From contig NC_043000.1 in NCBI RefSeq assembly GCF_006345805.1, positions 162,440,001 to 162,504,000 on the forward strand: a stretch of 64,000 bases of DNA, given 5' to 3'. The notes under the pieces were generated by a model that saw only the letters and a list, made by a program, of their open reading frames with translations, did no database searches and was not told the DNA's origin. Both the position numbers and the translations under genes were made by a program. This stretch comes from Octopus sinensis (taxonomy: Eukaryota). Shown here piece by piece: positions 1,062-61,763 of this stretch. Each line of letters starts with the position of its first letter. Within the stretch, counting starts at the first letter, position 1.

Positions 1062-1325
1062 AGCATTATTTACATTATTTACATTCAACGGATATTTGTC
1101 CTCATCTTGTTTGTTGTTAACACAACATTTCGGCTGATATACCCTCCAGCCTTCTTCAGGTGTCTTGGGGAAATTTCGAACCTGGGTTCTCATTCCTAAG
1201 GTGTTTTCCGATGTTGCTGTTGTTATTATTATTATTATTATATTATTATTCACGTCACTGCTTGGAATCGAACTCGGAATCTTGGGTGTTAGTAGCCCGC
1301 GCTCTTAACCACTATGCCATATGCG
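1062..1325 (-). mobile_element. tRNA-headed SINE-like element with (AAT)n linker and hammerhead-containing tail
   Basis: Minus strand: A-box TGGCATAGTGG (1309-1319), B-box GAGTTCGATTCC (1264-1275), (AAT)n ~1222-1250, HHR motif 1120-1163, tail ending GTAAATAATGTAAATAATG. Confidence 0.7.
1120..1163 (-). ncRNA. Minimal type I hammerhead ribozyme motif
   Basis: ACAC-CTGAAGA-A-GGCTG-GAGGGTATAT-CAGCC-GAAA-TGTT-GTGT. Helix I ACAC/GTGT, helix II GGCTG/CAGCC. GAAATGTT is probably a decayed GAAACGTT. Confidence 0.65.
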
Positions 1326-1600
1326 TCTAGCGGAGCGGTGTTAGCTTTAAGGTTGTATCCTGTAAAATTTATAGTTTAGCGTCTGACCTGTTCATTGTCG
1401 GCTTTTAAATAATCAGAACGACCTAATAAAATCAACACGACTCATCTTAATATTTCTTCTCTCTCTTCTTTGACTTTATGTTTTTACCATTTTAAAAAAT
1501 TCGTTATATTAATGTATTTGTCTGCATGCGTTTACTTTATGCGTACTTCAGTATCATGTATACCTACCATGCATTTATGTACATCATTAATATATAAATA

Positions 1601-1710
1601 GTGGAGGCGCAATGGCCCAGTGGTTAGGGCAGCAGACTCGCGGTCATAGGACCGCGGTTTCGATTCCCAGACTGGGCGTTGTGAGTGTTTATTGAGCGAA
1701 AACACCTAAT
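1601..1710 (+). mobile_element. 5' part of tRNA-derived SINE (family B)
   Basis: A-box TGGCCCAGTGG and B-box-like GGTTTCGATTCC. The same head occurs at 16213 (+) and 47782 (-). Confidence 0.75.
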
Positions 1711-3002
1711 TCAGAATTCGAACAGAATGTCAAATTATCTGCATCACCCAGAGTTTCTTTGTTCTACGATATCACTTTCAGTTCCTGCTAACTGGGCTAA
1801 ATTTCGGTGAAGATGTTGAAATATGAAGCTAACAGTTTAAGAAATACTCCTAATTAAAATTTGTTATGAATAGAATTAACCTAGTGAAATCATAAATTCC
1901 AGCTATCTGAGTGAATGAGCCTCTAAAATATATGAAGTGAAAAATATGTAAAAATACTAAGTGTGAAAAAATCAACATAGACAACAGTGGCACAGACAAC
2001 AGCGAACCACAACAAAGCGTGCGGTTGTCATGGTAACAAGCTGCTAATGCGGTCTGTTGATTGGCTAAAATTACCCAATTTCCAAACTTTAATGCGAAAT
2101 AGCACCAGATTCTTTAATTTATATAAGATACACTAAAATTGAAAGCTATTTGAGCAAAATTAAAGGGGGCATATTTTGCGAATGAGAAAAACTAGATCCT
2201 GTTTATAAGTTCTTGGAATTGTTTATCTCAGGTTTCGGGCAATTGTGAAAATTCTTCTTGACAAGTTGAAAAGTATATTGATTTTAAGTATGCTATCTCT
2301 CTCTCTCTCTCTCTCTCTATATATATATATATATATATATATATATATATATATATATATATATATATATATATATCCATACCTACATACATATGTGCGT
2401 GTGCATTTATATTTATATACACACATACACACACACATATTCGAGTTTGTATGATGATGGTGATAATAATAAGTACTACTGTTATTACAGTCTACCACCG
2501 CCACCACTAACAACAACAATAATGAAGGGGACGGTGAGGATGGTAGTAGCTTTGACCATATGAACATTGACTCCAATTAGAATTTCTGGAATGATAACAA
2601 TAGAACTTAATGAAAACAGGAATGTTTTTTTTTTACAACATTCCAAAATATAGCCAGACAATTATTCATTTAGCAGCGGTCGAAGTAAAGAATCCTTGAC
2701 ATTTCCACCAAACCGTGACGTCTAAGACACATACCGATTGGTCGAAATATATTTAGAACTTAGTTGGCGCGCGCACCAGCCTATGACATGTAAGTCCCAT
2801 GCTAGTTAGTCAAAATACAGATAATAAGATTCAACCTACTGGAGCCTATTGGAGGATCATTTAAAGGATAAGTCTAACTATTTCACTACAGTTGCCAATT
2901 TTAGAACACAACTCTCACTACATAAACCTGATGATTGCTGGTTTCTTTCAATATTGTAAAATTATAAAAATTGCAAATAATAAAACGTGAAAATCAAACT
3001 TA

Positions 3003-4266
3003 GATGGCTCATCCCATAAATAATGCGGTTTTTTCAAATGTATGAACTAAAAGTTCAAACGGGATAAACTAACTGCATCAACTTGCTATAAAAACAGGTA
3101 GTAATTTTACTTTGTACTTATTCTTAGTGCAAGTTTTGAAAAGTGCAATTCAATTTTAACAATTATTTTTTCAAAGATATAATAGAGGTGACAAAGGAGC
3201 ATATTCGGAATATTTTGCTTTATGAGTTCAATTAAGGAAACAACACAACAGAAAGTGCAAGGAATATTAATGCAGTATATGGGTATCGGACAAGAAGCGT
3301 AAGCCAGTGTCATCGGTGGTTTCAGAAATTCCGAACCGGAAGAAGACGAACCTCGTACTGGAAGTTCTGTAGCGCTCAACAAGGACGCCCTGCAAATCCT
3401 GGTGTTGCATAATCCCATCGTAACTGTTGAAGAACTAGCAGAGAAGCTTGGATTTGGTCATTCAACCATCCATCGATAACTGCGTTCTATCGGAAACGTC
3501 AGAAAATGGGGTCAATGGGTTCCTCACAAACTTTCCAACTCAAATTGCGCAGAGAGTGAATGACTGCTCTTCTTTGCTGTCACGTCTCAGGAATGAACCA
3601 TTTGGGGACCAAATAATGATTGGTGAGGAGAAATAGGTTTTCAATAAAAATGTGAAGCGCCGAAGACTGTGGGTAGGGAAAAGAGAAACACCGTCACCCC
3701 AGGCTAAAGAAGGTTTTCACTCACGTAAGGTGTTGTTTGTTTGATGAGATGTACAAGGTTTAGTCCACTTTGAACTTTTAAGCCCAAACCAAACGATAAC
3801 AAAAGAGATCTACTAGAAGCAGCTTGAGCGGCTTAAGTCAGCGCTGGCAGAAAAATGATCAACTTTGGTTTCAAGACGAAAGGTGTTCTTCCATCAGGAT
3901 AGTGATCGACCACATACAGCGAGTATGAGATTCCAAAGGCTTCAACAGTTTGAATGAGAAACAATGTCCCATTCACCATATTCGCCGGACATTGCTCCAT
4001 CTGATTATAATTTATTCCACACTCTTCAAAATCTTTTGGACAGAAAAAGTATGAATTCTGTAGACAAGGTCAGAACAGTAGTGGAGGAGTATTTTTCGTC
4101 ACGGACAAGTGAATTTTGGAAGAGGGCCTTGCAAGTCTACCAGAGATAGATGGAAGAGCATTGTAGAAAATGAAGGAGAGTATATTTTAGATTTAAAAAG
4201 AACTTTATTTTAGTTTCGAAAAATAAAAGAAGTATAAAAAACCACATTATTTATATGATAACCCAG
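3003..4266 (+). mobile_element. Full-length degenerate mariner transposon
   Basis: Imperfect TIRs (..ATCCCATAAATAATGCGGTTTTTT / AAAAAACCACATTATTTATATGATAACCCAG), TA at both flanks, ~1.26 kb. Confidence 0.85.
3182..4195 (+). pseudogene. Mariner transposase pseudogene
   Basis: WVPHKL motif at ~3516 and HSPYSPDIAPSDYNLF in ORF 3964-4149, with multiple stops and frameshifts. Confidence 0.9.
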
Positions 4267-59988: not shown

Positions 59989-60077
59989 TTTCATTCTACA
60001 CGTGTTTCGAAAGGCACAAATTACCAAAATCCGATTGAATAATGGGACCATATTGTGTCTTTCTCTTCAGGAAGAAA
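59989..60077 (-). ncRNA. Type I hammerhead ribozyme, sense to the GIY-YIG ORF
   Basis: Reverse complement of 61675-61763. Confidence 0.85.
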
Positions 60078-60678
60078 AAAGGAAATCCGTTGGAAACACA
60101 AAAACAGAACAGAGGCGGAGCAAAAAACAAATCGAACTGTGCTCCTAAGAGCCCATGGCGAAACTGTTTATCAGTGTATGTTGAGAACCGGTGGCTGAAG
60201 AATTCAACGGGTCAGGCATCGGTCAATCATGTGGGTGAGGGTGTATAGATGTTCTTTGTGACCGAGAATAAAGTTCTGACTATTTAAGGAATATTGGATG
60301 TTTTATAAGGGGCGAGAAAAAATCTACTTAGAGACGTGTGTGTGTGTATACTGTTCTATATATGTGTGTGTTGCGTAGGGGTAGAAAACATTTTTTGTGT
60401 ACGTGTGTGCGTTTGATCGTTCGGCTGTCAGTGGCTACTGCCGTGATAACCGTTGGGTGGCAGAAAGAAAAAAATAAAAAAATATATATATATTATGTTT
60501 TATGTGTGTGTGTGTTCATCTGAGCCTGCCTTGTCAAGGAAACCCCCCGCTGTGAGAAAACCAAGCCCCGTTTGTCTTACAGGAGTAATTCCCCTTGCAG
60601 TGGTTAATCGTAGATATCTTAAAGGCTATTTCAGAATTTGTTACCAAGGGCTATGGGTGCCGGTATTATTTATAAACG

Positions 60679-61113
60679 CTATTTAAAGGCCAGGAAAGTG
60701 TAACGCCGCCAATGGGGGCATCGAAAAGCCGACTGTAAGAGCCCGTTTACCATCCGGCCTCTGGCAAACAAAATATGGAAGAGTTCGGAGACACAAAGGT
60801 TGCACTGTCTTCTGCCCCTATCAAATGGGAGGGCCACCGACAAAATTGACCATTCCAGCCTATAGCTTAAGTTCGCATCCTTCAGTCGCCATATTAGCTT
60901 ACTGAGTCCCGTGGTCTGGCGCTTGTTCACGTCCCGAAAAGTTGCGTAATGGTTGGAGACACGCAAAGACAATCTTGAGGATGATGCCCCTACATAAGTG
61001 AAGGCATCTGAGTCCGTGTAAACCTTGCATTGGTAGACGGCGTTTTTGATCTTGGAGTTCGCCTTTAAATAGCGTTTATAAATAATACCGGCACCCATAG
61101 CCCTTGGTAACAA
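60679..61113 (-). CDS. GIY-YIG endonuclease domain of a Penelope-like element (144-aa open frame; first ~18 aa come from the inverted arm)
   Basis: NAVYQCKV...TYVGASSSRLSLRVSNH (GIY-YIG plus R..R..H), LSKLIW, WSIL, CNLCVSE, RCPH. No stop codon. Expression unproven. Confidence 0.8.
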   Translation of the reverse strand: MLPRAMGAGIIYKRYLKANSKIKNAVYQCKVYTDSDAFTYVGASSSRLSLRVSNHYATFRDVNKRQTTGLSKLIWRLKDANLSYRLEWSILSVALPFDRGRRQCNLCVSELFHILFARGRMVNGLLQSAFRCPHWRRYTFLAFK

Positions 61114-61674
61114 ATTCTGAAATAGCCTTTAAGATATCTACGATTAACCACTGCAAGGGGAATTACTCCTGTAAGACAAACGGGGCTTGGTTTTCTCACA
61201 GCAGGGGGTTTCCTTGACAAGGCAGGCTCAGATGAACACACACACACATAAAACATAATATATATATATTTTTTTATTTTTTTCTTTCTGCCACCCAACG
61301 GTTATCACGGCAGTAGCCACTGACAGCCGAACGATCAAACGCACACACGTACACAAAAAATGTTTTCTACCCCTACGCCAACACACACATATATAGAACA
61401 GTATACACACACACACGTCTCTAAGTAGATTTTTTCTCGCCCCTTATAAAACATCCAATATTCCTTAAATAGTCAGAACTTTATTCTCGGTCACAAAGAA
61501 CATCTATACACCCTCACCCACATGATTGACCGATGCCTGACCCGTTGAATTCTTCAGCCACCGGTTCTCAACATACACTGATAAACAGTTTCGCCATGGG
61601 CTCTTAGGAGCACAGTTCGATTTGTTTTTTGCTCCGCCTCTGTTCTGTTTTTGTGTTTCCAACGGATTTCCTTT

Positions 61675-61763
61675 TTTCTTCCTGAAGAGAAAGACACAAT
61701 ATGGTCCCATTATTCAATCGGATTTTGGTAATTTGTGCCTTTCGAAACACGTGTAGAATGAAA
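61675..61763 (+). ncRNA. Type I hammerhead ribozyme with extended helix II
   Basis: TTC-CTGAAGA-GAAAGACACAA...TTGTGCCTTTC-GAAAC-ACGT-GTA-GAA. Palindromic ACGT loop, GUA triplet. Confidence 0.85.

Follow-up and report, generated by a model that had tools for sequence, protein, structure and literature searches.

A cluster of Penelope-type minimal hammerhead motifs of known design, with two core variants, in Octopus sinensis

Hammerhead motifs and their repeat families

We analysed a 64-kb stretch of the Octopus sinensis genome (contig NC_043000.1, positions 162,440,001 to 162,504,000; hereafter the window), in which an original prediction, made from the letters alone, had placed some ten hammerhead ribozyme-like motifs of one design. 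The window has 36% G+C and is rich in microsatellites; the genome measures 2.72 Gb. No host gene was recognised among the 33 window open reading frames (ORFs) of at least 120 codons. The motifs are present where they had been placed (Table 1), and they form a real cluster of minimal hammerheads of the type found in Penelope-like elements (PLEs), of known design, with two core variants. Below, each repeat family is named by the position of its window motif.

The structural descriptor that we used runs, in order, through helix I, N3-UGA-N-N8-A, helix II, GAAA, a short segment, UH and helix I', with a minimum of four Watson-Crick pairs each in helices I and II. The background was provided by 40 dinucleotide shuffles of the window, made in 200-nt blocks. 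With any Watson-Crick pair allowed between positions 3 and 8, the window gave six matches (cores 1159-, 14902-, 41086-, 41146+, 60070- and 61682+) compared with a shuffle mean of 0.33 and a maximum of 2, so shuffled sequence is not matched equally often. The descriptor with C3-G8 alone found five matches against a shuffled mean of 0.025, and the control with a non-pairing 3-8 combination found none against 0.65. Because 41048/41142 and 59989/61675 are inverted arms, each pair representing one insertion, the six matches correspond to four independent insertions. In the window itself, the only intact copies are those of 14861, 41048/41142 and 59989/61675.

All ten loci belong to separate high-copy interspersed repeats, with at least 40 genomic matches per query (93-1975 first-look candidates). 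We aligned the 30 best loci of each family (29 other copies each; 11 for 61675); as these were chosen by likeness to the window copy, the alignments lean to its subfamily. The window copy of 1120 carries a C-to-U change within its palindrome, and helix II of the 28597 copy is weakened; most such defects are repaired in the family consensuses, which are better paired than single copies, except that 33726 and 59361 have no intact core. CUGANGA is present in the consensuses of the 1120, 39748, 41142 and 61675 families; the 39748 core is normal, with an additional A before G12 in the nearest subfamily, and the 41142 family is young, its copies being about 99% identical. Compensated cores were found in 28597 (U-A, 27 of 30 loci having both U3 and A8) and in 14861 (G-C), and the predicted retention of the 3-8 pair as C-G, U-A or G-C thus holds in the family alignments.

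The type I scaffold is therefore shared by eight of the ten families, six of which have a canonical or 3-8-compensated core, and the claim of one common design stands for these eight. The type I order is lacking only in 33726, where CUGANGA before helix II is absent from every consensus, and in 59361, which has a decayed core at the expected place and a CUGAUGA about 85 nt downstream that lacks GAAA-UH. We class both as relics, though 33726 may instead be unrelated; type II, type III or hepatitis delta virus-like readings of the two were dropped after inspection of the consensuses by eye. The 33726 family also contains, at 33735-33815, two crossing complementary pairs of 6-7 bp around GAAA, suggesting a pseudoknot; the region had no Rfam match.

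Table 1. Positions of hammerhead-related features in the window
Position	Strand	Feature	Details
1119..1164	-	Minimal hammerhead type I, C3-G8 core 1159-1153	GAAA 1131-1128; predicted cut after 1124
14859..14909	-	Minimal hammerhead, G3-C8 core 14902-14896	Helix III segment AAUAUU; predicted cut after 14866
27950..28527	+	Broken PLE ORF 3' end: linker, Cys-rich finger, GIY-YIG endonuclease	tblastn; adjoins the 28597 motif upstream
28598..28632	+	Minimal hammerhead, U3-A8 core 28601-28607	3-bp helix I; segment AUAU
33679..33930	+	High-copy repeat, helix-II-like hairpin and GAAA, without hammerhead core	Relic or unrelated
38267..38301	+	Minimal hammerhead scaffold, U4C core 38271-38277	Canonical core in sister subfamily
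39748..39789	-	Decayed copy of C3-G8 family, helix III segment ACAGCUGU	G5C; 6-nt deletion removing GAAA
41048..41090	-	Minimal hammerhead C3-G8, left arm of head-to-head pair	Descriptor match
41142..41184	+	Minimal hammerhead C3-G8, right arm, segment ACGAUUGU	Self-pairs with one G-U
51030..51065	+	Minimal hammerhead scaffold, A6U core 51034-51040	Window copy additionally G10.1C
59150..59590	+	Older high-copy repeat, two decayed hammerhead-like relics	Near 59380-59425; core near 59447
59780..61827		Hydra-clade-like PLE insertion, 5'-truncated	Inverted pseudo-LTR arms 59925-60690 and 61061-61827
59989..60077	-	Minimal hammerhead C3-G8, core 60070-60064	Long helix II; segment ACACGUGU
60679..61074	-	Endonuclease (C-terminal part) of Hydra-clade-like PLE ORF	ORF, tblastn, homologues
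61675..61763	+	Counterpart of the 59989 hammerhead in right arm, core 61682-61688	Predicted cut after 61755

Core pairing, helix III and the link to Penelope-like elements

Covariation was assessed in 2.03 Mb of sequence with positions 3 and 8 left free, which gave 196 distinct matches. All 13 multi-copy clusters (at least two copies) pair at 3-8, eight as C-G, four as U-A and one as G-C, bearing out the covariation that had been proposed; P is 1.6e-4 given the margins and 0.018 for the eight window families, both values assuming unrelated families. Copies mismatched at 3-8 within a family were single and decay-like. Four A3-U8 singletons, against 2.7 in shuffled sequence, and two G3-C8 matches in a tandem repeat of locus L342 were treated as chance.

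The segment from A15.1 to U16.1 is self-complementary in all eight scaffold families. When compared with no palindrome filter and with equal tie-break weight for real and shuffled matches, it was fully self-complementary in 12 of 14 clusters, with one more at 0.91, versus 19% of 26 shuffled matches, in agreement with the predicted palindromic helix III. In the monomer, helix III comprises 0-2 bp with no real energy gain; the segments self-pair over 4-8 bp, with self-duplex energies from +1.6 to -11.1 kcal/mol.

Two families lie directly 3' of PLE GIY-YIG ORFs. The first is 28597, tied to PLEs by the endonuclease alone: its window motif begins about 75 nt past the stop of a GIY-YIG ORF, same-strand GIY-YIG sequence lies just upstream in 20 of 30 loci, and the relative L070 scores 22.8 bits with PF01541, compared with a cut-off of 22.6. 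An independent GIY-YIG search returned intact ORFs of 775-781 amino acids with reverse transcriptase (RT) and GIY-YIG, many followed 3' by another U3-A8 family; these ORFs are Neptune-like. We also observed a young Neptune-like PLE family (L417:3032-5374, L418, L419, L420) with intact 781-amino-acid RT and GIY-YIG ORFs, an overlapping upstream ORF of 479 codons in L417 and L420, and a U3-A8 motif with weakened helix I in L417. A splice-donor-like AG/GTAAGT lies at 28636-28643, a few bases past helix I' of the window U3-A8 motif, and is kept in most copies of that family.

The second, 59989/61675, resembles the Hydra clade of PLEs, of which DKT and (TA)n targeting are marks (Craig et al. 2021, 10.1101/2021.04.23.441226). 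Its inverted arms (59925-61827) enclose the endonuclease piece, (TA)n flanks both ends of the insertion, and the left arm carries a long tail. At locus L301, two copies of the 61675 motif bound a 3631-bp tandem unit that contains RT fragments with frameshifts, DKT among them, together with this endonuclease, whose homologues are RT-endonuclease proteins of 700-800 amino acids. The family of the 59780-61827 insertion thus shows DKT in place of DKG, a C-terminal endonuclease, (TA)n insertion and a hammerhead, and shares with Hydra-clade PLEs the inverted 5' copy as well; it differs from them in its 3.6-kb unit with a long low-complexity linker. The CxCX5C linker finger is present in the homologues and not evident in the L302 protein. 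Pfam returned no family for the window endonuclease piece, L302, L301 or seven homologues, and neither did a homologous-protein search.

In the six scaffold families with no linked ORF, copies end 3' at a fixed point 100-150 nt beyond the motif, frequently at (TA)n. The 3' end comes in a short and a long form in both 14861 and 61675, resembling the PLE 'tail'. Inverted upstream copies, a PLE trait, occur in 26, 20, 16, 14 and 10 of 30 loci in five families, and all motifs are oriented alike and occupy a corresponding position with respect to the 3' end of the element. Two candidate links were set aside: an ORF in L416 lies 2 kb from the G3-C8 motif and is separate, and an endonuclease piece in L262 accompanies the A6U family in only 1 of 30 loci.

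Together with the scaffold, the repeat status and the 3-8 pairing between families, these data make it very probable that eight high-copy families carry the motifs as minimal hammerhead sequences of type I, two of the families lying directly 3' of PLE endonuclease ORFs and six being likely truncated or non-autonomous pieces of PLE pseudo-long terminal repeats (pseudo-LTRs). Cleavage is predicted only for dimers or when protein assists. Several observations weigh against this reading. The six scaffold families, including G3-C8 and A6U, had no linked PLE ORF, and the inverted upstream copy was absent in the 38267, 51030 and 59361 families (30 loci each). Families 33726 and 59361 were amplified despite broken cores. 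The 3-8 P value is optimistic because families may be related, and the 2.03 Mb scanned included loci chosen for these very families. Self-duplexes of 4-6 nt are weak alone (+1.6 to -1.7 kcal/mol), and for the 61675 and 39748 motifs the fold of lowest energy differs from that of a hammerhead.

We propose that PLE RNA transcribed from the pseudo-LTR would fold helices I and II, as suggested by the literature (PMC4209133, PMC11167929). Since the short self-complementary segment alone gives no stable helix III, two RNAs, or two tandem units, would have to pair through the palindrome, completing helix III and forming two active sites. The cut would follow UH, weakly or aided by the element's protein. 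Dimer cleavage and low activity of minimal hammerheads have been described (PMC4209133), and in a lizard PLE cleavage in vitro was protein-assisted and dispensable for insertion (PMC11167929). Selection on copying (master) elements would keep 3-8 as C-G, U-A or G-C, and neutral decay would set in once a copy had inserted. Because the predicted cut site lies inside all copies, the RNA that served as template for reverse transcription would have been either uncut or joined again after cutting, consistent with low or conditional activity. For the short copies that share a 5' end, a start site or a splice junction may mark one limit and the internal priming site the other.

It is also possible, although we give it the smaller chance, that the six ORF-less families are independent non-autonomous elements, retrozyme-like or similar to short interspersed elements (SINEs), that borrow PLE proteins and are not fragments of long PLEs. 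Copies of 14861, 41142 and 38267 have sharp shared 5' and 3' ends and are about 200-250 nt long. Non-LTR retrozymes likewise are non-coding, PLE-derived and carry a type I hammerhead, and animal retrozymes have been argued to derive from PLE pseudo-LTRs (bioRxiv 10.64898/2026.07.22.740005). However, retrozymes are defined by head-to-tail tandem arrays, whereas the window families are dispersed singles or inverted pairs, with a direct copy in 0-4 of 30 loci per family and none abutting. Moreover, the 14861 family has longer 5' forms in L416, L038, L035 and L352, and a pseudo-LTR start site with internal priming would yield the same short copies from an autonomous PLE.

Variant cores

The 14861 family is a young repeat of about 145-205 nt (window copy about 14775-14918) with a 7-bp helix I. 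The full G3-C8 pattern is present in 30 of 30 loci; among core-covering copies in other loci, G3 occurs in 10 of 12 and C8 in 12 of 12. The family was also found in contigs of four runs (organisms A-D), with no alternative base at 3 or 8 at a 5% share, the depth being lower there. The fold of the whole element was no better than shuffles (z -0.78). Cleavage in a lizard PLE was partly restored by the C3G/G8C double mutant (PMC11167929), and a complete scan of double mutants found no rescue of the region other than the G-C swap, with low activity in the remaining single and double mutants (PMC9901934). Based on this partial rescue and its uniqueness in the scan, we predict that the 14861 family is active.

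Short G3-C8 copies share a 5' end, with G directly before ATGCAGC in 22 of 27 contexts. In the long forms (L416:1956-2010, L038:1451-1505, L035, L352), we noted as the last elements a CTAAC resembling a branch point, a tract of pyrimidines and CAG. This end coincides with the start of most short copies, about 20 nt 5' of the core (window 14918), and could represent a 3' splice site or else a start site of the initiator type. In the Penelope of Drosophila virilis, the pseudo-LTR intron ends at helix I (PMC4209133).

The 51030 superfamily and one 38267 subfamily depart from the invariant A6 and U4, respectively, and were for this reason filed as variants. Of 28 copies of the 51030 superfamily that had not been chosen as anchors, 26 carry U at position 6 and one carries G at position 17, while position 7 is split into U (10), C (7), G (6) and A (5); C and U at position 7 may be one CpG-decaying class. 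Divergence is 0.07 in 29 constrained columns compared with 0.16 in 94 flank columns (P=0.003), a contrast inflated by BLAST retrieval and the helix II filter, and a second allele at 20% or more occurs in 1 of 29 constrained versus 21 of 94 flank columns. This column pattern suggests selection on a CUGUNGA core. Against such selection stands the low activity reported for mutants of the region (PMC9901934) and for natural A6C (PMC3088659). In 38267, C4 marks one subfamily and U4 a sister with different flanks (five versus four unselected copies).

The two abundant families with unusual catalytic-core letters likely would still work. A bolder proposal, which we advance tentatively and consider unlikely as a whole, is that the active site of the hammerhead is being scanned by natural mutation in this genome. 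G3-C8, familiar chiefly from designed mutants, would be used by a young family of about 10^4 copies; in an older superfamily of 2-3x10^4 copies, U6 would have persisted through several subfamilies while positions 7 and 17 drifted; and CUGUNGA would be a ribozyme that is active and under selection, with dimer formation or the PLE protein perhaps rescuing it.

A competing explanation, doubtful in our view though with some weight, holds that the motifs derive from hammerheads and in many families do not cleave, serving as a protein-binding or folding element or travelling as passengers; the odd cores (U4C, A6U, missing) would be dead ribozymes, spread since insertion needs no cleavage. In its favour, catalytic mutants of the lizard PLE left in vitro insertion unaffected, RNA ends at the cut site were not observed (PMC11167929), and the double-mutant scan found low activity for everything save the G-C swap (PMC9901934). 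The abundance of the core-less 33726 and 59361 and the variation of U4 between the 38267 subfamilies point the same way. On the other hand, conserved constrained columns with varying free positions 7 and 17 in the A6U superfamily are the pattern of a selected hammerhead, subject to the retrieval and filter bias, and 3-8 compensation is hard to account for without a folded core.

Abundance, annotation and relation to known hammerheads

Abundance was estimated from eighty 10-kb stretches at fixed, evenly spaced coordinates (800 kb), which gave 11 matches compared with 1.6 in shuffled sequence. Extrapolated genome-wide, this amounts to about 32,000 intact motifs (95% interval 13,000-61,000). The expected very large and diverse ribozyme-bearing population is thus upheld in diversity and number, but the window overstated its density, six motifs in 64 kb being about 7 times the sample rate. 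The ten families were matched 34 times in the same sample, corresponding to a total of the order of 10^5 copies, most of them decayed. When the descriptor was relaxed at U4 and A6, it found 23 matches there, 7.6 being expected from shuffles.

That shuffles are matched at all by relaxed descriptors, and that two of the motifs have no core, are points in favour of chance matches in AT-rich, hairpin-rich repeats, an explanation that we dismiss as extremely improbable and that is refuted for the six canonical or compensated families, because the excess is strong and confined to Watson-Crick 3-8 cells, consensuses are better paired than single copies, palindromes appear though not required, and motif sense and position relative to the element 3' end are uniform.

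Rfam at its gathering threshold found no hammerhead in the window, and none at E<=10 for three single motifs searched individually; ranked by E-value over the whole window, the best 150 of 300 rows were hairpin or simple-repeat matches with no hammerhead. Elsewhere in the genome, RF00163 matched 7 of 74 scored candidates, which look canonical. The expectation that standard hammerhead models would miss these motifs therefore applies to Rfam; the standard tool for this class is the descriptor of PMC4209133. Additional hammerhead families were seen outside the window (L349:~600, L372, L320, L338, L360, L423, L426-L431), several with helix III segments of 6-11 nt.

The window holds other features as well. 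A 184-nt unit at 480-967, present in 2.6 tandem copies, is presumably SINE-like, and a 100-base N gap lies near 41900-42020. Fragments at 27069-27452 (-), 62743-63129 (-) and 63093-63473 (+) include what we take to be mariner-like and hAT-like transposase readings, for which Pfam gave no match; among them is a weak RVT_1 piece (E 0.039).

The closest known system is the minimal hammerhead of metazoan PLEs (Cervera and de la Peña 2014, PMC4209133), with which the octopus motifs share the order of parts, the short helix I, the extra base at 9.1, the palindromic helix III, the U3-A8 variant, predicted dimer cleavage, and many families per genome in mostly single or inverted copies. The design, dimer model, U3-A8, multiplicity of families and inverted pairs were thus already described there, and our general picture adds little. 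In contrast, the G3-C8, U4C and A6U cores present here do not appear in the main-text parts and the 56-motif alignment rows of that paper, and our estimate of about 3x10^4 exceeds the 4,000-9,000 given there for coelacanth and frog, with descriptors that differ. PLE-associated small hammerheads that cleave as dimers (Lunse, Weinberg and Breaker, RNA Biol 14:1499) belong to the same class, according to a review (PMC6765202). Natural variants reported by Perreault et al. 2011 (PMC3088659) include U3-A8, A6C with low activity, and viroid U4C; these are rare, whereas here variants are fixed in families of thousands of copies, and the passages of that paper covered here do not name G3-C8 or A6U. 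No natural G3-C8 or A6U hammerhead was found in the literature searched, with Lunse et al., Arkhipova et al. 2017 and the figures and supplements of Perreault outside its scope, and no study of hammerheads in octopus was found there. A 2026 octopus repeat annotation reports active PLE families, the word 'ribozyme' being absent from its main text (PMC13282606).

For annotation, our results mean that descriptors need to include G3-C8 and U6, or tens of thousands of copies would be missed (from three and eight matches per 800 kb). For the PLEs themselves, cleavage was dispensable for insertion in one in vitro system, and the motifs are nonetheless conserved. In this genome, canonical, compensated (U3-A8, G3-C8), deviant (U4C, A6U) and lost cores have all reached high copy number, and, as sister families of differing core are all abundant, their activities can be compared directly.

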